Under the pieces are notes generated by a model that saw nothing but the letters and a program-made list of their open reading frames with translations, was not told where the DNA came from and made no database searches. A stretch of 64,000 bases of DNA from Ostreococcus lucimarinus (Eukaryota): the NCBI GenBank assembly GCA_000092065.1, contig CP000594.1. One strand, written 5' to 3'. This document shows positions 1 to 55,129 of the stretch, in pieces. The translations under genes and the position numbers were made by a program. Within the stretch, counting starts at the first letter, position 1. Each line of letters starts with the position of its first letter.

Positions 1-3000
1 CTCGGCGGTGCCAAGCTTAAACATAAGACTGTACGTCGTCCCGCGCCGACCGATGACTGTCAAATCTTTGAACGTCGCGAGACCGTTCGAGACGCGTTCT
101 GACCCTCCGATCACCGCATATGGAGCCGGCGTTACTGTTACCGTCACATTATCCACTGAGTTTGTCACGACGTTGCCCGAAATATCGTAAACGGTGATTT
201 CAAACGTTGGAAGCGATACGTTGCTGTCATAGCTCGATGGAATGCGCTGCGTACCGAACTCAAGCCTGTACGGATCTCCGGGCTCGATGATGACTTCCAG
301 AGCATCGCCAATGAGAACCAAGTTTTGCGTTGACGTGCACTCGTTGGCTTGACATTCAGACTGAAATTCTAGCACGTAACGCCCTGCGAGCGGGCGAATG
401 AATTTCAGCCCCGTTGCGGTGCCGACAAATCCAGGGTCGCTTCGCACGCCGTAAAAGTCCAAACCAGTCCCCGTGGTGCCAGCGACATTCGGAGGTGAAA
501 GTCCACCAAGCGAGCGTAAATATGCGGTCTCAGCGGCGAGCTTGTTCTCGCTCGCTTCGCTACTATCTGGCGAGCAAAAGCTCTTTGCGCGATTGCTCTC
601 TGTGCCATCGGCGCACCACGCCGCTACACCATTGACGATGTAAAGGGCGCCCACACTCACTGATCGTGAATTGCTCGGCGAACAACCAATTGTGGCGTCC
701 GCGCACGATACGCTTGTTTCATCGGCGATGAGCGGTGACGTCACCGTTGTGGTGGACGTCGTCACTCCTGTGGCGCTCAGTGCGTACTGTTTTAGGTTGA
801 CGTTGACGGCTCGGCGGGCTTCGGCGGTGTCCAACGAAGAGCCCATGAGTAATCCACCGGCGTCACGTGTGACGACAAAAATGTCAGTAAGATCGACGAC
901 GTCTGCACTTTTGTATGGACGTGTATCTGTGCACAAACCGACGGGGAATTCCACGGTGACGTCAGCGCGAGCGCAATTTGGGCAACCGCACGCGTCCAGA
1001 GATGAAATATCGCCAGCCTTGATGAGAATGTCGAACGAATATGGCGTGAGGACCACGGGTGAAGGTGTCGACACAGTTACTCGATATGTCCCAGCGACGG
1101 GATTGTAGAGCCTGATGCCAGAGATTAGTCCAACGCCCGACGAGGTGGCGTATTGGCTGATTTCGGGCGGCTGCGAAAATGGGTCTTGCGTTGTCGACGT
1201 CACGTATTTTATGCCCACGCTCACATGTCGCAAGATCCCAAAGTCAGCGCTCGTGACTTCGTTTGCACCACCATCGGTAACCGTCACCGCAAACGGGGCT
1301 AATATCAGAACTCGTGCCGCCATGAGCGTTGTCGGACGACTGTACGTGGCGTCGTTTGGAGTTGGATAGCCACGCGAGCTCGGCACATTAAGTTGACTCG
1401 CATCGCCGAGGGTGATTGCCACGGCCACGCTATCCGATATCAACCCATCGCCTGCAAATGTCAAGACATACTGACCTACTTCCAGCGCTTGCGCGGTGAT
1501 GCCAGTAAATTTAACGATGGATCGTCCCATCGGCGCTGTAACCGATTTCGTAGCGTACGCTTGCGTCGTAAACGTCCTAGTCGAGTTGAATGAGGAACGT
1601 AAAGTCGCCGTGATAACCTTTGTGAACTGGTTGCTTTCCAATAACGTCCCACCAGCATCTTGCATGTGCACAGTGAATTCATCAAATAAAATGAGAGCAC
1701 TTGATTTGTATGAAGTCACGGTTTCGATGGTTGAGACGTGCTCTAGCTTCGCCGGAACACCTTCGATGATTTTCACCGTCATATCGTACGAGCTCAAGCC
1801 AGACGTGGAAAATCGGATGACATGCGTGCCCTGTGGTGGCGAACTGAGATAGAAATTACTCAGTACCACGGTCCCTGCGACTGTCGTACTACTTGTCGTA
1901 CCGAGCAACTGCGCGGTGCTATCCACCACGGAGATGGTCAAAGTGCGATTGACGCCGTCTTCGGCGAGCAGTTTGTTGCCCGCGGCGTCCACGACGTTCA
2001 GAACGAACGGTTCCGATGCACGACCAATAAGGGTGTAAGTCGATGACTTGAGCCCCACTTGACCGACCAAGCCTTCAAAGGAGTCCGGGAAGACGACGTC
2101 GAGCGACGCGGCAGAGCCCGGCCAAACGTCGTATGACACATCCACGTCAACCAAACCGGGGGATTTAAAGGTAACGATTGCCTTTCCACCGTGAATGGTG
2201 GACTTTGGAAGTCGAAATGCGATGTCGCTGAACGTCGCTGTGCCACTACTGATGGCTTTCGTGTGCGTTTGAGGTTGTGTCGCCGCGCACGCGTTTCCAG
2301 ACAACACACACGGATTCGTCCTGGCGACGTCAAACACTGCCTCAATCGTTCCGGCACAGCTCGCGTCGCCGGTGACACAGGTAGGAGAATACGCGCTCCC
2401 GACCAAATTATCGCCGCCATCCATAACGACAATGACGATTGGGCTCAAGACCACGAGCGCCGCTGACCTATACTGCGTACAAGTACACGAGGAACCACTT
2501 CGCAGGAGCGTCGTTGTCGTCGTACACAATCCTGTCCCTGTGTCGCGATATTGCACGTAATAATCATCGCAAGGCGCTCGTATAGCGAGATGGTGTGCGC
2601 GCCCGAGAGTCACAGTGATAGACTGCGTGAGATTCGAAAACGCTGGCATCGCTGGCACGTGAAATTTCAGCGTGTGCGTACCCACCTTTGCTCGTTCAAG
2701 CGCCAATCCCGCGAAAGTCACCGCGTTTGTCGCGACGTCAAAACTCGGACTCAATCCAGTCGACACAGCCAGCGGATCAGGAATGACAAACGCATGTCGT
2801 GTCGCAACCGTGGCATTATACGTCAAGTAATCGCTCTTCACCCCGATAGCATCGCTTGAGACGCCGGATGTGAACTCAAGGTACGCCACGACAGGAGTGT
2901 CCCCTAAAACGTAATTGACTCCATTTGCGTGCGCGTCGTACATTTGAAAATCGAACGCATCCAGAGGGACGTAATATGCCGCCGCGTAACGTCGAAACGT

Positions 3001-6000
3001 CGACATATTCATCACGCCAAACTCTGGTTCGTAAGTCGTCACTGGGGAGTTCGTGAGCGCAAAGCTACTCGGTACGCCTGACGTGACGGTGATGTTGAAG
3101 TTCAAATCCACGAGCGGCGAGGTGTTCGTGGACATGACGTTTCCAGAACTATCCTTCAGCGTGTTAGTCGTCGAAGAACACGTGATTCCGTGCACACCCA
3201 GCGTGACGGAAGACAAAGTCAAACCGGTGAGTACGGCGGCCCCAGTGCTCAAAGTATTGCCCGTGAGCGTTCCTGAAATAGAAAGTGTCGAGCTGGTGCA
3301 TGCGAAGGCGCGATCAACTGTGTACGAGAGCGTTGACGCATCATAACGGTCGTTCGCGCCCAAGAAGCTTCCCCCAATATCCGCCACATAAATCGTCAAA
3401 TCGCCCAGAGGCGTCGACGATCCGGCATAACGTATGTCAGAGCCGAACTCGAGGGTATGTTTCCACTGATGACCGATGTTGCCTTCGACCAGCTGAACGA
3501 GTTGCTTTGCCGGGCGAATGTAATCCGAACCAGTCGCGTAAAAGGCGATTACGTAATACCCAGCCGGTTGGACATCGAGCGTGATACTATTCGCTGCGAA
3601 CGTCCAAGTGGCTGTTCCAGTTGAATCCGTGACGCTCGTCGTGGAAGTCGGTTCGAGCGTGAAAGAGTCGCCGTATGCCCGAACGTCAACCGAGGCACCA
3701 GACTCCGGCGGCGATGTGATCAAATTATTTCCAGCGTCGTACAATCGCACCGTGATCGCGTTTGGGATGGTCAGCGTCGTTGAAGACGTCGTCATTGAGG
3801 GCACGATATGGTTATCTATCTCCAAATATCTCGGTCGACCGACCACAGTGGTGAATGCGGATATTGCCGAACCAAAGGACGCAGAGAATAGAAATCTGTA
3901 CGTCGCGTCCGCATCGTTTACTCCCCTGGACGCCGCAGGGTAGGTTAGATTGTTTACGAATATCGTTTTACCGGGTGTTCTCGCACCGATCGGTGCAGGA
4001 TTGAGAAGCTTCAAGTCACGGAATACCGCCACGCCTCGATGCGTAGACACTGTCGTGGAGCCATTGATAATCGATCCAGAGGTTCGCGGAGCGTTTGACG
4101 CGTCCACAGATGTCACCGAGATTGAGTGCGAAACTTCGTCAAAGTTGTGCAACCTGTTGCCTGCGGCGTCTAACACGTACACGTTTACGACGCCGACGTC
4201 GGATTCCTCATTAGTGGGCACCACCAATGTGTTTGTTGAGCTCGGTATCGCGGCCAATCCTACAGGCGCTCCAGGCACGACGGTGAAATGGAACGTCGTC
4301 GCCATCGCAAGGGCAATGCAACTTGAACCAGTGCAGTCTTCACCGATGACATCGACGACATAATTACCCATCCGCAAAGGTGCGCTAAAACGTAATTGAA
4401 ACGTTGCCTTACCATCCAAAGTGGTGATGGTGGACGGCACCGTCGTCATCGTCACCCCTGGTGTATCCGTGGAGAGCGAGGTGTTTAGCGTCGCCGTGAT
4501 TTTAAATCCCCGCGTCCCGCCAACGCCAAGATCATCCGCGATGACGGTGCCTCTGTTATCCACCAAGTTCACCGTCATCGCGTCGAGCGTCATTGTCGAC
4601 GCGCCAGCATCTTTCGTTGACTCATACGCAGTGTGAGCGATGTTTTGTCGCGCGTGCGTCACGCGAAGACCATTCGGCGTTCTATGCAGCGCTAGGGCGA
4701 CGCCGGTATGATAATCCACCCCATTCATGCTAAAATCCACCGTCACCGACGTCGGTGGCGGGTCTAACAACCACGGCATTTTCACGTGGTAGTCTCCACA
4801 TCCGTTTGCGCTCGTCGAAGGACAGAGGGGACACGTGACGCGTGTCGAGTTGACGTACGCCGCGTCCAACACGCTCTGAGCGCCGAATCGACATTTGAGC
4901 ACGCCGTCGACGAATGGACCGCCATCGATAGCAATTACCGCTGGATCCCCATTCGGTACTTCTCCCGTAAATAGCACCGAAGGCACGTGTGAATTCGTTA
5001 CCGACGTCGCGACGAGATTCGGCGGGTCGTAATACATGTAATTTGCCATTCCGCCGACCCATATAGAGTTTTCAAAAAACGTCGCGAGCGCGCTGCGATC
5101 GTCCGGATAACCCTCAAAACTGATACTGACGGCCGATATGTACGTACCGGTCGCCGCGAACGCACTGTACGACGGCGCATCGCATTCGATCGTTGTCGAA
5201 TTCACCAGTTTGGCTGGCACATACACGGGCGAACCGTCGTTCAAAAATCGGCACGCCACGCGGTGCGACAGAGTGTCGTCCGGGGCCCAGGAAGAGTCGT
5301 ATGGAAACCCAACACCACGAATCGTGAGCGTTGTCCCACCCGCCTTGGGTCCTCTTGAAGGGGAAATATCATCGATTTCTGTCACGGAGAAGCTTTGGTA
5401 CGAGATTTCTGCGTCCGAAACATTGTACGTCCCTGTGAACAACGCACCCATGCTTGGGATCGTCGTCATCGCACCGATCGGTCTTGTCGACGCCGTCGAC
5501 CCTTGAACTTCCATGCACGCCGATCCGACGCAGTTGGCATCCGGGAATACTTTGACTTTTACTATGCGCGTCGGAGCATTCACGTCTGACGCGTCCTGGC
5601 TCGTGAGGACGTACAGCGTCCCTCCACTCGCACCCCCATCGCTCACTGTCTCGATGGCGAGCGCATCCCTAACTAAACTACCACTCGTTCCTAACTTGAC
5701 GTGTTCTATCGCCGAGCTCGTGTTGTTGAATGATTTTCTAACCCGGTATACGCACGAGATGCGACTGACGCACGTTGCGCCGCACATCGCGCCGTTGTAA
5801 GGCGCACTCGATGTCGCGACGTAAGCATAATCTCCCATCACTCCGAGCGCGGTAAACGCGGTATACCTTCCGAGATAGCTCGACGAAAGCAAAGAATGAC
5901 CTTCGCACGCCGCGTCGATGGCGGTGGCGTCTTTAAAGTACAGCTCCCCATCCGCCGCGATTACGCTCTCGCTCGAGTACGGATTCAGGCGAACAATCGC

Positions 6001-48906: not shown

Positions 48907-50421
48907 TTACGAGACGACGCAGCACCCCGGTTGGGCGTCGGGCTCGTTGGCGTACTTATCCACCATGGGTTCTAATTCAGCGATGATTTCCAAGAAACTC
49001 GGACGCTTTTTCACCAAAGGATCCCACATGCGAGCGACGAGGGCGGCGAGCTCGGGGGGCATGTAACCCTCACGAATGGGCGGCCGCAGGTTCTCCAGGC
49101 TCGCCGCCCTGCACGCGTCGACGGGATTTCGACCGGCGAATGGTTGTTGGAAACTGAAGAGCTGGTAGTAAATCATCGATGCCGCGTACACGTCTACGGC
49201 TGGACCGTAGAACTCGTGGCGGAAAACTTCTGGGGCCATGTATCGGTACGATCCGGTCTCGCCCGTCATGTTAAACGCTTGCGACATTTCTTGCGGAAGC
49301 TTGTTGCGCACCGACAACGTCTTGGAGAGGCCGAAATCACCAATCTTGAGCGTTCTATTCGCGGTCAACATCAAGTTTCCCGGCTTCAAATCACGATGAA
49401 TCACGGGAAGAGGCGAGCGACCGTGAAGGTACGCCATTCCTCTCGCGCAATCGAGCGCCATCTTCGTCGATAGCTTCAGCGGAAAGATTTCGTCGTTTCT
49501 GAAGAGCGTCTCCAAGCTTCCACCCGACATGTATTCGCTCACTATGGAAGTCAACCCGTCGTCGGAGACGGTGGTGCCCAGAAATTGCACGATGTGCGGA
49601 TGATGCAGCTGCTGCATTATCTTCAGTTCCAATCTAAATTCCGCCTGCGCGACTTCGTCCGCGTTGAGGTGCTTGTGCAACTGCTTCAAGCACACGCGCG
49701 TGCCTCGCCACAAGCCGCTGTACACGACACCGAACGCGCCGGCGCCGATTTCCGCGACGTTTGAGAACTCACCATCGGGAATTTCCCACGCCATCGTATC
49801 CGCCGGGAGCTGCGTATGGAACACCCCGGAAAGATGCGACTCCTCCAGCGGCACAAACGTGCCACTGACCCTGTCTTTGATCTTGGCGCCGTTCTTCGCG
49901 AGCATCTTCACCAAGTCGCTGTGATTACCGTAGACCGCGCTTTCTAACGGCGTCGACCCCCATCTATCGACTGGATTGATCGTCACTCCAGATTTTACTA
50001 ACCAGTCCGCCACCGCAAACGACCCCTCGCTCGCCGCGACGTGCAACGGCGTCCGATTGTCGTAGTCGCTGAAATTCTCGCTCGTAATCGTCTTCTTCGA
50101 CCGCTCTAAAACTCGTTTCAAACGTTTCAAATTCCCCGTGGACGAGCAAAACAACAATTCACTGGTCAAGTGTCTCTCGGTGTACTGTAAAAACTTCGCC
50201 GTCCCGGGTTTATTCGTCGCGTCGTCCCCGCTCGTGGCGTCTCCGTCGCTGTGCCTTCCGAGCGAGCTGTCGTTGGTCAAGTCCTCGGTGCTGTCAAACT
50301 CACTCATATCGACCCGATACGGCGCCCGGATCCCCGGCGACGCGCCGACGGGTAACGCATCGTTCGCCATGCGCTGTCCACTGTCGCTGTCGAGGCTTTT
50401 ACGCGGGCTCGCGGGCGCCAT
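48907..50421 (-). CDS. Ankyrin-repeat Ser/Thr (dual-specificity-like) protein kinase
   Basis: ATG at 50421. Ankyrin repeats (TPLHVAASEGSFAVADWLVKSG...), then kinase subdomains (VCLKQL lysine region, HRDLKPGNLML, DFGLSK, YMAPE). Confidence 0.7.
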   Translation of the reverse strand: MAPASPRKSLDSDSGQRMANDALPVGASPGIRAPYRVDMSEFDSTEDLTNDSSLGRHSDGDATSGDDATNKPGTAKFLQYTERHLTSELLFCSSTGNLKRLKRVLERSKKTITSENFSDYDNRTPLHVAASEGSFAVADWLVKSGVTINPVDRWGSTPLESAVYGNHSDLVKMLAKNGAKIKDRVSGTFVPLEESHLSGVFHTQLPADTMAWEIPDGEFSNVAEIGAGAFGVVYSGLWRGTRVCLKQLHKHLNADEVAQAEFRLELKIMQQLHHPHIVQFLGTTVSDDGLTSIVSEYMSGGSLETLFRNDEIFPLKLSTKMALDCARGMAYLHGRSPLPVIHRDLKPGNLMLTANRTLKIGDFGLSKTLSVRNKLPQEMSQAFNMTGETGSYRYMAPEVFRHEFYGPAVDVYAASMIYYQLFSFQQPFAGRNPVDACRAASLENLRPPIREGYMPPELAALVARMWDPLVKKRPSFLEIIAELEPMVDKYANEPDAQPGCCVVS

Positions 50422-50909: not shown

Positions 50910-53633
50910 TCACGCCAGCTTTTCCCCGCAAAACATGTAGTGCGTCGGGCGATAAGGCGTGTACGGCACGCGCCCTTCCTCTTCGGCGTAGTACACGGTC
51001 TTGTAGTCCTCGTTCGACAACAACCACTTGCGGTGTTCTTTGTTGAAGAAGACGCCGTCCATGGCGAACCACCACTTATATAATCGCTGATCCCAGGATC
51101 GCTCTCTACCCTCGCGAGTGACGAAATCAATCAACGCTAGGTTACCACCAGGGGCGACCAAATCACTCATGGTCTTCAACGCCTTCTTCCAATCGGGAAT
51201 CATCGTCAAGCAGTACGAGCACGTCACCAAATCCGCTTGCTTGGGCAACTTCTTCTTCACCGCGGCGCTGTTGATGTCACCCTCCACGAAGACCACTTGA
51301 GGCGCGAGACCGAGCTCCATCACGCGTTCGCGCGCCATTTCAAGTAGGGCGTCAGATAAATCGCACAAGTACACCTTGGTGTTGCACTTTCTCACGTGAC
51401 CGACGACGAACTCAACGTCGCGCGCCGTGCCGCAGCCGACAGAAATCCAAGTCTTCGGTTCTTTCGCCCACGGAATGACGTGGCGCATGAACAAATCACG
51501 AGCGGGTAACAACGCCTCGCGGAAACCGTCGTAGTTCTTGCCCTGTTTCTTGTAGAACTCGCGCACATCCTTCACTTTGCTCAAGCCTTGCTTTGCCATC
51601 GCCAACATAACCGAGACATCCGCCCCGAACGAGTTCGTGAACGTGCGACCGCTGCCCTTTTGCACGATCATCTCCGGATTATAGTTTTTCGGCGTAGGCG
51701 CGATAAACTGCGTGAGATACCAGCCAACGCGATCGTAATCTGGTACTAGAGTTCCATCGAGATGCGCGAGCACCGGAGAGTGCACGCAATCGGCGAACGA
51801 ACGCCAAAAGATGCGACCCTTTTCCTTATCCATGTTCGCCACCACCTTTGAAATGTTCTCCGCAATCATCTCCGCCGGCATCCAGTCCATGGAATCGAGC
51901 AGCGAAGCGATGGTGATCGAGCCCGGGCCTTCGCGAACGGCGGCATCAGCCCAGGTACCGTGGAAGAGGTCGACGCGGTCGACTCTCTTCTTCAGGTTGG
52001 TAAAGTTCTTCTTCTCCAAGTAGCGCGGGCAGCAATCGGGAGCGAATTCACCGACGATGTAGCCGTAGTAGAAGTAGTTATTAGGCTTCCACACACGCAC
52101 CTTGAGGACTTCCACCAAGCGATCGGCGAACACCTCCGGGTTGCGGCTCAACAAGTTGAGTTGCTCGAGAGGCACGCCGCCTAGCGGCGCGATCCAACTC
52201 CACAAGAACGTCATCGAGCACAACTTCAACGTCAACCAGAAAAAGATGCCGCCCGGACTATCTTCAAACTGTTCGCGGTTCATCACGCGTCTGCGCATGC
52301 CCGACAGGCGCAGCGGAAAGCACAAAATTTTCGCCATCAGACCAGACGTGCCGGCGTACATGAAGTTGTCTCGGAACAAGTTGTGATTGTCATCCCAAAA
52401 CTCAGCGGTTTCGGGCTTGAGCAGCGGGCGTAACTTGGACTCGTAGACAGATGTGAACACTTTGTAGTTCGAGCGACCCCAAATGTCGAAGAACTGCTCC
52501 CAGTTCAACGCACGAATGCACGCCAGCTTGAGCTCGAGGGTGTGCAACTGCGCGGCGTTCATGTCGACGGCGATGATCTTCTTCGGACCTTGGCACAGGT
52601 AGTCCAGAACGTTGCAGCCAGCGGAAGAGATCGTCAGAACCACGTCTTGGTCGTTCATGTGCATCACCTTGTGATCGACCGCGGGATCTTCCCAAGAAAT
52701 ATTGTAGATGATTTTCTTGCGGCCGATGGACGTCATGATGAAGTTTTGCGTGTACACATCGTGCACAACGACGCCAAAACGATACATAAAGATCAAGAGA
52801 ATGGTCGCGTGCATGACAATAATTGGGACCGACGGCGGCTGAGTGTACTTGGTGTAAACCAAGTCGTACGCCGCGTAGGCGTGCGCCATCGTGTTCGCCG
52901 CCAACATCATCGCGAAGAGCACGAGCTTCCCCTTGAAAGGCATGCGCTTACGACCGTGCGAACGCATCAAGTATCCACGAACCCAACGCTGGAACTCTTT
53001 TACGTGCAGCATTAACAGACTGAGGCCGACGGTGAACACAAGAGTAGAGAACTGCGCCGCCTTGTAAATCAACACCGTGTGGAACACGATGCGGGTGAGA
53101 AAGTACAAGACGCCAAACAGCAAGCTCGGTCGCTGCTTGTTTTGCACTTCGTGGAACGCCAACAACATGATCGGCAGCTCTTCCACGAGCGCAATGGCAA
53201 ACAAGGACGTGAGACCGTCGTGAATCAAGTATGCGCACACCGCGATGTACAAAAAGTGGTGCGTCCAGCCGTCGTCGTACGTCAGCAAGTTTTCGTAGTG
53301 CATGCTGCCGAGAAACAAGTCCATGATGCAGTAACCGATGAAGAATATAGCGGCGTATCGCGACAAATCCGTTTCGTTGTCAATCGTCGCCGTGAACCCG
53401 TCGTGGCAGACGTGGTAAAACAAGTACAACCCGACGAAGGATGTGACAAAGGACGAGTACAGCGTCAAGTACCACGAGTGATCGGGAAGCTTTAAGAAGC
53501 GCAAAAAGTAGTACACGAACGCGCACGCGATCATGTTCGACCCTAAGAGTATCATATCATTACCAGAAAATCGCACGTTCTCCGCCAAGAACTGCGCCAT
53601 CTGCGCCGACGCCGTCGCGATTTGAGCCACCAT
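50910..53633 (-). CDS. BTA1: Betaine-lipid (DGTS) synthase-like fusion: an N-terminal ~300-aa polytopic membrane module (TLC-like), a BtaA-like AdoMet:DAG 3-amino-3-carboxypropyl transferase domain, and a C-terminal BtaB-like SAM N-methyltransferase domain
   Basis: ATG at about 53633. BtaA-type block IIYNISWEDPAVDHKVMHMNDQDVVLTISSAGCNVLDYL. C-terminal class-I methyltransferase motif ISVGCGTARDVEFVV...YLCDLSDALLEMARE. N-terminus has about 7 hydrophobic helices. Confidence 0.7.
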   Translation of the reverse strand: MVAQIATASAQMAQFLAENVRFSGNDMILLGSNMIACAFVYYFLRFLKLPDHSWYLTLYSSFVTSFVGLYLFYHVCHDGFTATIDNETDLSRYAAIFFIGYCIMDLFLGSMHYENLLTYDDGWTHHFLYIAVCAYLIHDGLTSLFAIALVEELPIMLLAFHEVQNKQRPSLLFGVLYFLTRIVFHTVLIYKAAQFSTLVFTVGLSLLMLHVKEFQRWVRGYLMRSHGRKRMPFKGKLVLFAMMLAANTMAHAYAAYDLVYTKYTQPPSVPIIVMHATILLIFMYRFGVVVHDVYTQNFIMTSIGRKKIIYNISWEDPAVDHKVMHMNDQDVVLTISSAGCNVLDYLCQGPKKIIAVDMNAAQLHTLELKLACIRALNWEQFFDIWGRSNYKVFTSVYESKLRPLLKPETAEFWDDNHNLFRDNFMYAGTSGLMAKILCFPLRLSGMRRRVMNREQFEDSPGGIFFWLTLKLCSMTFLWSWIAPLGGVPLEQLNLLSRNPEVFADRLVEVLKVRVWKPNNYFYYGYIVGEFAPDCCPRYLEKKNFTNLKKRVDRVDLFHGTWADAAVREGPGSITIASLLDSMDWMPAEMIAENISKVVANMDKEKGRIFWRSFADCVHSPVLAHLDGTLVPDYDRVGWYLTQFIAPTPKNYNPEMIVQKGSGRTFTNSFGADVSVMLAMAKQGLSKVKDVREFYKKQGKNYDGFREALLPARDLFMRHVIPWAKEPKTWISVGCGTARDVEFVVGHVRKCNTKVYLCDLSDALLEMARERVMELGLAPQVVFVEGDINSAAVKKKLPKQADLVTCSYCLTMIPDWKKALKTMSDLVAPGGNLALIDFVTREGRERSWDQRLYKWWFAMDGVFFNKEHRKWLLSNEDYKTVYYAEEEGRVPYTPYRPTHYMFCGEKLA

Positions 53634-54276: not shown

Positions 54277-54900
54277 CTAAAACGACGACGAAGGCGCGTC
54301 CCAAGCGGTGGTGGTGACGACCGTCCATCCCGCGCGCGCGGGCGCGCACGCGCGGCGAACGAGCGAGGCCAAGTCTTCGGCGACGCGCGCGGCGGCGCGC
54401 TTGGGCGGCGGGCGCGCGAACTCTCGCGAGACGACGCTCGAGCGTTCGGTGGAAGCCGCGTCGACGGCGACGCGCACGAACACTCTCGGGACGCTTCCAG
54501 CGTATGATTCCGCCCACGCCGCGTTCGTGCTCACGTCGCGGACGCAGAGCGCGAAATCTCGCAGGCACTCGAGCGAGGCGCCGGGCGGCGCGCGGGCGGC
54601 GGCGTCCACGGCGGCGTCGAGCTTGTCTTTCAGACCGTCGCACAGACAGCATCCGGGCTTGGTGTACACCACGATGGTGTTCGCGGCGACGTCATCGTGC
54701 GCGCCGTCGTCCTCGTCGTCGTCGCGTGCGAATCCGTCGTCCGCGCGCGCGCGCGTCGTCGGTCGGCGCGTGGACATTCGCACGTGCACTCGAACCGTCG
54801 CGCTCGGACGCGCTCGAGACGCTCGAGACGCGCGAGATGCGCGAGACGTCGACGCGTCGAGCGTGCGGGACGCCGCGACGTCGACTCGGGCGAGGGACAT
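54277..54900 (-). CDS. Glutaredoxin-like (thioredoxin-fold, DUF836-type) protein with an N-terminal targeting extension
   Basis: Motif IVVYTKPGCCLCDGLKDKLDAAV plus ...SVPRVFV. Start uncertain: ATG at 54900 or 54777. The track start at 55062 is non-ATG. The region is very GC-rich, so confidence is limited. Confidence 0.4.
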   Translation of the reverse strand: MSLARVDVAASRTLDASTSRASRASRASRARPSATVRVHVRMSTRRPTTRARADDGFARDDDEDDGAHDDVAANTIVVYTKPGCCLCDGLKDKLDAAVDAAARAPPGASLECLRDFALCVRDVSTNAAWAESYAGSVPRVFVRVAVDAASTERSSVVSREFARPPPKRAAARVAEDLASLVRRACAPARAGWTVVTTTAWDAPSSSF

Positions 54901-55129
54901 CGCGAGTCGAACGACGCGGCGTCGCGAAGTGTCGTACGCGCCGCGCGGCGGTTGGCGAGCGCGGGCGTCGCCGGCGGCGTTCTGCGACGGACGCGACGGG
55001 CGGGATTCGCGATGTGGGTGCGATTCACGATGTGTATCAACATAACATACACGTACGCCCACATCGCAAGGTGGTGAGTGGATGGCTAAGAAATCCTAAG
55101 AGATTGTGAACGAGCGCGAGCTCGCTCGT

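Follow-up and report, generated by a model that had tools for sequence, protein, structure and literature searches.

A betaine-lipid synthase of Ostreococcus lucimarinus with an N-terminal TLC-like membrane domain that retains candidate acyltransferase residues

Introduction

Betaine lipids substitute for phospholipids in phosphate-starved marine phytoplankton, and are thought to form an extraplastidial platform for the editing of polyunsaturated fatty acids. To our knowledge, none of the acyltransferases that would close the betaine-lipid acyl-editing cycle has been identified, nor has the enzyme that converts DGTS to DGTA. BTA1 is the sole protein of betaine-lipid metabolism studied so far, according to a 2024 paper (PMC11711679). 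BTA1Cr of Chlamydomonas reinhardtii, fungal BTA1, and the bacterial pair BtaA and BtaB share their chemistry and Pfam families with the protein described here: a SAM-dependent aminocarboxypropyl transfer to diacylglycerol (DAG) is followed by three N-methylations. The Chlamydomonas and fungal enzymes are arranged in BtaB-BtaA order and the bacterial enzymes are separate proteins, and unlike the Ostreococcus protein neither form has a membrane domain.

The BTA1 configuration published for marine algae, with Mamiellales and O. tauri expressly named among them, is BtaA-BtaB (Bolik et al. 2023, PMC10685587, citing Murakami et al. 2018), and the published BtaA tree places Mamiellales sequences within the marine-type clade (PMC10685587). 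The O. tauri orthologue is a reported BTA1 homologue that P deprivation induces; its protein has been detected under this condition, with betaine lipids rising, and DGTA is the exclusive betaine lipid reported for that alga (PMC7407893). An annotation as betaine-lipid synthase already exists for the gene described here, and members of the homologue cluster carry the name ‘betaine lipid synthase’ in the JGI annotation. In one published study, a foreign Sec63 membrane anchor was attached to BTA1. On the side of the membrane enzymes, work from 2024-2025 has shown that CerS6, TLCD1 and CLN8, all proteins with a TLC domain, are ping-pong acyl-CoA acyltransferases. Here we describe a BTA1 gene from a 64,000-nucleotide stretch of O. 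lucimarinus contig CP000594.1 (the window) whose product appears to bring these two kinds of protein together.

Results

The gene is a single intronless ORF that opens with ATG and runs for 907 codons to its stop, with no internal stop or frame change, exactly where the original prediction had placed it (Table 1). Its product is identical to XP_001421536.1/ABO99829.1 of O. lucimarinus CCE9901 and has three parts. The N-terminal module is polytopic, the middle part is a BtaA-like DUF3419 domain, and a class-I methyltransferase forms the C-terminal part. All of the motifs first quoted from the protein are present: WTHHFLY at residues 123-129, the stretch beginning IIYNISWEDP at 308-346, and ISVGCGTARDVEFVV at 731-745.

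Both soluble domains are readily recognized by Pfam, in keeping with the predicted BTA1-like betaine-lipid synthase. PF11899 matches residues 306-615 (E 1.8e-75, 255 bits against a cutoff of 28.2); this family, DUF3419, corresponds to BtaA, is matched by Rhodobacter BtaA, and is a model that predicts DGTS synthesis (PMC6642084). The Methyltransf_23, 25, 11, 12 and 31 models and UbiE all score above their own cutoffs over roughly residues 693-875 (Methyltransf_23, E 5.8e-15), and the glycine-rich SAM motif VGCGTARD is invariant in 41 homologues. These domain coordinates put both activities on one polypeptide with BtaA first, as had been proposed, and from its domains the protein is predicted to produce DGTS from DAG and SAM.

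Table 1. Features of the O. lucimarinus TLC-BTA1 gene, with positions in the window
Feature	Residues	Positions	Strand	Basis
Whole CDS	907 aa + stop	50910..53633	-	Identical to XP_001421536.1
N-terminal amphipathic helix	1-23	53565..53633	-	AlphaFold; predicted luminal from helix parity and positive-inside rule
Seven-helix TLC/ceramide-synthase-like core	24-226	52956..53564	-	Part common to stand-alone relatives
D105 in motif GYCIMD; counterpart TLCD1 D98	105	53319..53321	-	Alignment
H125-H126 in WTHHFLY; counterparts CerS6 H211/H212, TLCD1 H117/H118	125-126	53256..53261	-	Alignment
E151-E152-L-P154; counterparts TLCD1 E145, CerS6 D239/D242 region	151-154	53172..53183	-	Alignment
R181-IVF-H185 in FLTRIVFH; counterparts CerS6 R275 (FITTRL), CLN8 R204	181-185	53079..53093	-	Alignment
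Basic juxtamembrane stretch, two extra TM helices (233-262, 269-290) and conserved amphipathic linker helix DVYTQNFIM	227-305	52719..52955	-	AlphaFold, alignment
BtaA-like domain (DUF3419/PF11899), SAM:diacylglycerol 3-amino-3-carboxypropyl transferase	306-615	51789..52718	-	Pfam
End of BtaA fold and helical inter-domain region	616-718	51480..51788	-	Homologue alignment, full-length model
BtaB-like class-I SAM methyltransferase	719-875	51009..51479	-	Pfam; motif I VGCGTARD
Conserved C-terminal strands of methyltransferase fold and stop codon	876-907	50910..51008	-	Alignment, model

The first 300 residues are hydrophobic by their Kyte-Doolittle peaks, and AlphaFold models this region with confidence (pLDDT 90.4, pTM 0.86) as an amphipathic helix followed by nine long helices. 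A separate polytopic module of about 300 residues had been foreseen, and this much stands, but with nine long helices rather than the roughly seven then counted; seven make up the core at residues 24-226, which has the seven transmembrane helices of the TLC/CerS fold, and two more (233-262 and 269-305) lead into the BtaA domain. The elements of residues 227-305 are found in fused proteins only, and are absent from stand-alone relatives of the core. Clusters of basic residues follow TM5, TM7 and TM9. Helix parity and the positive-inside rule together predict a luminal N-terminus, with the entrance to the TLC cavity and both soluble domains facing the cytosol; the extra helices would bring the polypeptide back to the cytosolic face.

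The core also occurs as a stand-alone protein in other organisms, and one could suppose that two adjacent genes, for a small TLC-like membrane protein and for BTA1, are merely being read here as one ORF. We consider this exceedingly improbable. Besides the uninterrupted frame, two helices specific to the fusions join the modules, together with a linker of conserved sequence (DVYTxxFIM), and modelling of the full-length protein gives a compact structure with good confidence (pLDDT 88.1, pTM 0.80). The same three-part protein is found in complete transcripts (Bigelowiella, Dictyocha and Pseudopedinella, MMETSP) and in many genomes, so the fusion does not reflect ORF read-through, and we rejected a gene-model artefact on these grounds.

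By blastp, the N-terminal domain is detected in about 68 of 81 relatives, and a full-sized extension lies upstream of BtaA in 61, a count that leaves out three BtaB-first (fungal-type) proteins. The fusion is carried by Mamiellophyceae, Cymbomonas, chlorarachniophytes, dictyochophytes and pelagophytes (about 60 full-length relatives). No BTA1 sequence under the name of a diatom, haptophyte or eustigmatophyte was found, and further homologue searches returned the same set or fragments. The N-terminal domain evolves faster than the soluble domains, with a mean identity of 39% as against 56-57%.

Recognition of the domain as TLC depends on its relatives. The query itself has no match to Pfam TLC even at E<=10, and a search of its N-terminal 307 residues against Pfam and NCBIfam gave only a sub-threshold IQ match. 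Among fused N-terminal domains, however, 5 of 31 match Pfam TLC (best E 6e-6). Two homologues (P0019 and P0020) have a precomputed PF03798 match. A profile of the domain retrieved 1102 representatives, mostly stand-alone proteins of 200-400 aa, with E<=1e-10 for 809; stand-alone relatives match this profile at E 1e-30 to 1e-40, and of the 20 scanned, with profile matches at E 1e-30 to 1e-38, 6 reach the TLC gathering score (24.6 bits). The profile found zero matches among PDB sequences at E<=10, phmmer with a stand-alone relative gave one spurious match only, and Foldseek returned nothing significant from PDB for the N-domain model, and methyltransferases only for the full-length model. Among longer stand-alone relatives, the one additional fusion was to DUF4436, in a single chytrid protein, and no substrate clue was found there. 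It is thus through homologues, structure and motif order that the TLC-like character first suggested for this module holds up.

The motif order is that of the TLC acyltransferases. D105, H125, H126, E152 and R181 are kept in 39/41 fused proteins, and among 117 stand-alone relatives each is retained in 114-116 (at least 97%); the H125-H126 pair is present in 40/41 and 115/117, respectively. In CerS6 and TLCD1, the first His of the pair is the acyl-enzyme nucleophile (PMC11919693, PMC11838012), and TLCD1 D98 is needed for acyl transfer from His to the acceptor (PMC11838012, PMC11919693). A single collinear HMM alignment sets the five residues on TLCD1 D98, H117/H118, E145 and the R of FLFRL, and they are also collinear with FLD-1, YPR114w, and HH211/212 and R275 of CerS6, at scores that are non-significant for TLCD1, FLD-1, CLN8 and CerS6 and positive for YPR114w alone (12.6 bits). 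Comparison of the N-domain profile with the CerS6 Lag1p-motif fragment by hhalign likewise placed HH on HH, but not significantly. The spacing is nearly the same, D98-19-H117-28-E145 in TLCD1 and D105-20-H125-27-E152 in Ostreococcus, and by correspondence with CerS and TLCD1 the conserved residues would line one cavity.

These residues bear on whether the domain is instead a catalytically silent anchor or lipid-binding scaffold that keeps BTA1 in the ER and presents DAG to the BtaA site. Such a role suits the original proposal that TLC domains sense lipids, and also the faster divergence of the domain. BTA1 lacking it is fully active in Chlamydomonas, Kluyveromyces and Marchantia. Two fused homologues (P0045 and P0062) keep the domain but have lost several catalytic residues, and in others (P0070 and P0340) no more than one or two N-terminal helices take its place; N-domain catalysis is therefore dispensable for a working BTA1. 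Yet an anchor has no need of five residues, charged or polar, that lie buried within transmembrane helices and are invariant across nearly all fused and stand-alone proteins, and these match, both in order and in spacing, residues on which catalysis by TLCD1 and CerS6 has been proven to depend. We regard a purely passive module as possible but doubtful.

Discussion

We propose that this gene encodes a three-module enzyme of betaine-lipid metabolism that would be integral to the ER membrane, and we lean towards a betaine-lipid synthase that is anchored in the ER and carries a TLC acyltransferase, probably active and dependent on acyl-CoA, whose acceptor would be a lyso-betaine lipid. In the BtaA step, the 3-amino-3-carboxypropyl group of SAM would be transferred to diacylglycerol, and in the BtaB step three N-methylations would yield DGTS, the presumed precursor of DGTA. 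The first module would be a nine-helix membrane domain in which helices 1-7 adopt a divergent TLC (TRAM-LAG1-CLN8, ceramide-synthase) fold. That this module serves as a membrane anchor is certain. Because it retains the Asp / His-His / Glu / Arg set of TLCD1 and CerS6, it is in all likelihood an acyltransferase in its own right that depends on acyl-CoA, in which the first His would be acylated by acyl-CoA and the acyl group then handed to an acceptor by a ping-pong route. The originally predicted mechanism, a membrane anchor giving access to DAG, is thus probably too modest, since the domain has kept all the catalytic residues of TLC acyltransferases. Weighing against an acyltransferase is the fact that BTA1 lacking the N-terminal domain, as in Chlamydomonas and fungi, makes DGTS unaided.

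As to the acceptor, a lyso-glycerolipid of the same pathway is most plausible, and candidates would include lyso-DGTS/DGTA, the unmethylated precursor, or monoacylglycerol, which would give DAG. With any of these, synthesis of the head group would be coupled to remodelling of the acyl chains. The more specific proposal, that the domain is an active TLC-type lyso-betaine-lipid acyltransferase that re-acylates lyso-DGTS/DGTA or an unmethylated lyso-intermediate, perhaps with very-long-chain PUFA, we put forward only tentatively. The gene product may nonetheless be a candidate for the missing acyl-remodelling enzyme of betaine lipids.

The distribution of the fusion invites another idea. Several fusion-carrying lineages, the pelagophytes and dictyochophytes among them, are reported DGTA producers, and the N-terminal domain might perform, or be required for, DGTS-to-DGTA conversion. 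This would account for O. tauri having DGTA as its exclusive betaine lipid (PMC7407893), and the enzyme of this conversion is unknown (PMC10685587); the term ‘DGTA synthase’ is absent from the searchable literature. However, no TLC enzyme is known to carry out a decarboxylation and recarboxylation or to rearrange a carbon skeleton. Fungi, which have close stand-alone relatives of the domain, make DGTS and are not known to make DGTA. In tobacco, expression of Phaeodactylum BTA1, a protein that may or may not carry the domain, yielded DGTS. We consider a role in DGTA formation quite improbable, and prefer an acyltransferase.

A widely conserved natural TLC-BTA1 fusion with intact catalytic residues is a Rosetta-stone clue that nominates a concrete candidate for betaine-lipid acyl editing. 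If the lyso-betaine-lipid acyltransferase reading is true, the protein would be a trifunctional ‘synthesise-and-remodel’ protein and the first identified enzyme of this editing and, by extension, the roughly 800 stand-alone representatives in fungi and protists would form a new clade of TLC acyltransferases. In heterologous expression of marine BTA1, the native membrane domain should be considered, rather than foreign anchors.

Relative to described proteins, the N-terminal module would be the new part of this architecture. The order of the catalytic domains, which the original prediction took as distinctive, is that already published for marine BTA1 (PMC10685587). The three-part form is the usual one among prasinophytes and in a number of further lineages of marine algae, which in part matches what the original prediction said would refute it, while for its N-terminal domain we found no mention in the searchable literature.

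Among TLC acyltransferases, CerS6 and Lag1/Lac1 are ceramide synthases, TLCD1, FLD-1 and YPR114w are LPE acyltransferases, and CLN8 is an LPG acyltransferase; the Ostreococcus domain has, with matching order and spacing, an Asp 19-20 residues before His-His as in TLCD1, the TM4 His-His pair of CerS6 and TLCD1, an acidic residue some 27-30 positions after it as in TLCD1 and CerS6, and the TM6 Arg of CerS6 and CLN8. The stand-alone relatives in fungi and protists (e.g. Cunninghamella CAO3632805.1 and chytrid KAJ3082077.1) have the same seven-helix core and invariant residues, but differ from the fusion in lacking BtaA, BtaB and helices 8-9, and all are annotated as hypothetical. Marine-type BTA1 of Nannochloropsis oceanica/Microchloropsis gaditana and Phaeodactylum, which may or may not carry the N-terminal domain, agrees with the Ostreococcus protein in its two catalytic domains and in their order. 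Published descriptions, however, are of a two-domain enzyme, to which Ostreococcus adds a native polytopic TLC-like domain of ~300 residues before BtaA.

Gene organization and known features

The BTA1-like gene is one intron-less ORF in the ORF listing of the window. Its product contains all three sequence motifs quoted in the original prediction and has the same sequence as XP_001421536.1/ABO99829.1 from Ostreococcus lucimarinus CCE9901, which makes the window nuclear DNA of that alga. Pfam places both soluble domains (see table below), and NCBIfam returns only generic UbiE-like methyltransferase similarity, far under equivalog cutoffs. The BtaA-then-BtaB order had been singled out as unusual, but eukaryotic BTA1 is known in two configurations, BtaA-BtaB in marine and BtaB-BtaA in freshwater and terrestrial organisms (Bolik et al. 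2023, PMC10685587, after Murakami et al. 2018), and Mamiellales, e.g. O. tauri, have been placed in the marine clade (PMC10685587), so the order in O. lucimarinus is the published marine form. DUF3419 corresponds to BtaA, and its value for predicting DGTS synthesis has been validated empirically (PMC6642084); JGI names in the cluster of homologues read 'betaine lipid synthase' or 'SAM:diacylglycerol 3-amino-3-carboxypropyl transferase'. The O. tauri orthologue is 87% identical; it has been seen by proteomics under phosphate deprivation and identified as a BTA1 homologue (PMC7407893). The gene had thus been recognised before, as had its pair of soluble domains and the order in which they stand. 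Neither flanking gene, the kinase or the DUF836 protein, has an obvious functional tie to it; the long Arg/Ala-rich N-terminal extension of the latter could be an organelle transit peptide.

Positions of features in the window and in the 907-aa protein
Feature	Window (strand)	Residues	Remarks
BTA1-like gene	50910-53633 (-)		907 aa
Divergent TLC domain, assigned from sequence		24-226
IQ-like motif FQRWVRGYLMR	52962-52994 (-)	214-224	Pfam IQ 13.6 bits, under the 20.3 cutoff
DUF3419/PF11899		306-615	Pfam, E 1.8e-75
Class-I methyltransferase		693-875	Pfam, several models
Ankyrin-repeat protein kinase, flanking	48907-50421 (-)		Pkinase E 1.4e-48
Glutaredoxin-like DUF836 protein, flanking	54277-55062 (-)
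Lower G+C	1-6000		0.54-0.56; most of window 0.58-0.69

A conserved TLC-like membrane module

The predicted extra polytopic membrane domain is borne out. Residues 1-300 are strongly hydrophobic and recur at the N-terminus of most of 81 homologues (blastp with this segment) down to ~25% identity. AlphaFold2 models the module with confidence (pLDDT 90.4, pTM 0.86; 31-sequence alignment as input) as nine long helices preceded by an amphipathic helix at the N-terminus; the roughly seven helices first counted hold for a TLC-like core but not for the whole module. A full-sized extension upstream of the BtaA domain occurs in 61 relatives, a count that leaves out three BtaB-first (fungal-type) proteins, and named carriers include Ostreococcus, Bathycoccus, Cymbomonas, Bigelowiella, Norrisiella, Amorphochlora, Dictyocha, Pseudopedinella, Chrysophaeum and Chrysoreinhardia. 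Most 'short' homologues are truncated gene calls in which the last helix of the module is still there. Mean identity is 39% in the N-domain against 56-57% in the soluble domains, and across 31 aligned N-domains W54, Y101, D105, H125, H126, E151, E152, P154, R181, H185 and H210 are invariant or near-invariant polar residues within hydrophobic helices. Judged by this conservation, the module is a real domain, and that the fusion is a gene-model artefact is barely credible. A few BtaA-BtaB homologues (P0070, P0340) have only one or two N-terminal hydrophobic helices and the conserved linker, not the full TLC-like domain, so the membrane module is variable within marine-type BTA1.

The proposed TLC likeness holds through relatives rather than through the protein itself: Pfam finds no match in its first 300 residues, TLC included, even at E<=10, whereas PF03798 is matched by 5 of 31 fused N-domains (best E 6e-6) and by two homologues in precomputed annotation. 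When 1.84 billion representatives were searched exhaustively with the N-domain profile, 1102 relatives (809 with E<=1e-10) came up, most of them stand-alone proteins of 200-400 aa matching only at profile positions ~15-230, the seven-helix core; six of 20 scanned reach the Pfam TLC gathering score. On this sequence evidence, we assign residues 24-226 to a divergent TLC domain, with helices 8-9 and a conserved linker helix (DVYTxxFIM) specific to the fusion. Against the PDB, the N-domain sequence profile came back empty and Foldseek with the model gave no significant match, a caveat on the fold assignment.

The few stand-alone relatives with names are all fungal 'hypothetical' proteins (Cunninghamella, chytrids). 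Library matches P0189-P0315 point to a large stand-alone TLC-like family with invariant residues in common with the fused N-domains, a clade of the TLC superfamily that is uncharacterised as far as we found in the literature searched; in the chytrid match P0216 the TLC-like domain is fused to DUF4436.

Catalytic residues and proposed function

CerS6 follows a ping-pong mechanism: acyl-CoA acylates H211, the first His of the HH pair in the Lag1p motif, and the roles of H212, D239/D242 and R275 range from important to essential (PMC11919693). Lysophosphatidylethanolamine is the lipid acylated by TLCD1, FLD-1 and YPR114w, and lysophosphatidylglycerol the one acylated by CLN8. H117 of TLCD1 corresponds to the histidine that accepts the acyl group in CerS6; TLCD1 also needs D98 for acyl handover to the acceptor and is inactivated by E145K, while H139 and R204 of CLN8 are disease-mutated (PMC11838012). 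We compared these proteins with an HMM derived from both groups of domains (31 fused, 117 stand-alone), taking CerS6 segment 202-288 from the PDB and confirming the TLCD1-paper numbering by translating its printed constructs (PMC11838012). The alignments give a single collinear register across all the residues tabulated below, with spacings of D-19/20-H-27/28-E and then 29-33 from the acidic residue to Arg. The alignment scores are non-significant alone, with only that of YPR114w positive, and the argument therefore rests on collinearity, spacings, fold match and transitive Pfam evidence.

Candidate catalytic residues, HMM-aligned counterparts and conservation
Residue	Counterparts	Fused	Stand-alone
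D105	TLCD1 D98; equivalent Asp of FLD-1, YPR114w	40/41	114/117
H125	HH of TLCD1, FLD-1, CerS6	40/41	115/117
H126	HH of TLCD1, FLD-1, CerS6	40/41	115/117
E152	TLCD1 E145; Glu of FLD-1 MELNS motif	39/41	116/117
R181	CerS6 R275; Arg of TLCD1, FLD-1, YPR114w	40/41	114/117

The N-domain would anchor the enzyme in the ER, and is itself a putative acyl-CoA-dependent acyltransferase; we lean slightly towards its being catalytically active. A silent anchor or DAG-presenting scaffold is a possible but weaker candidate. Two full-length fused homologues keep the domain with altered residues (P0062: Y101S, D105E, H126Q, E151Q, E152Q, R181G; P0045: H125Q, E152M); they look like pseudo-enzymes that arose naturally, of possible use as controls.

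The lysolipids that TLCD proteins are known to acylate carry a cationic head group beside a hydroxyl (PMC11838012). Because such acceptors are cationic, as is the betaine head group made by the enzyme to which the N-domain is fused, we speculate that an active N-domain would favor a lyso-betaine-lipid or an unmethylated lyso-intermediate over monoacylglycerol, whose acylation would yield the DAG substrate. DGTA is the sole betaine lipid reported for O. tauri (PMC7407893), and the N-domain might instead carry out DGTS-to-DGTA conversion, but that chemistry is unlike every TLC reaction and close relatives of the domain are found in fungi, leaving this role improbable.

Topology and assembly

Clusters of basic residues follow TM5 (2), TM7 (6, with 3 more where TM8 begins) and TM9 (3), and the TM2-3 loop is acidic. 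By the positive-inside rule, these clusters predict a luminal N-terminus, as in CerS, and cytosolic BtaA and BtaB, where SAM and acyl-CoA are present. The full-length AlphaFold model is confident for a protein of three modules and 907 residues (pLDDT 88.1, pTM 0.80; 41 sequences), in keeping with modules fixed relative to one another and not strung together like beads. Next to the membrane, the basic helix that follows TM7 fits the calmodulin-binding IQ consensus [FILV]QxxxRGxxxR; the motif recurs in 5 of 31 homologues, is possibly restricted to prasinophyte-type sequences, and may reflect Ca2+/calmodulin regulation or chance in a basic helix.

Relation to known systems

In the searchable literature on betaine lipids, BTA1 and DUF3419, we found no mention of a TLC-like N-domain of BTA1 with an intact catalytic set, and an earlier mention is possible. 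One group has equipped marine BTA1s with a foreign Sec63 anchor; our analysis shows a marine-type BTA1 with a native polytopic TLC-fold domain and the TLC-family catalytic residue set. A CerS-like catalytic domain on BTA1 would surprise a specialist, and it makes betaine-lipid acyl editing directly testable.
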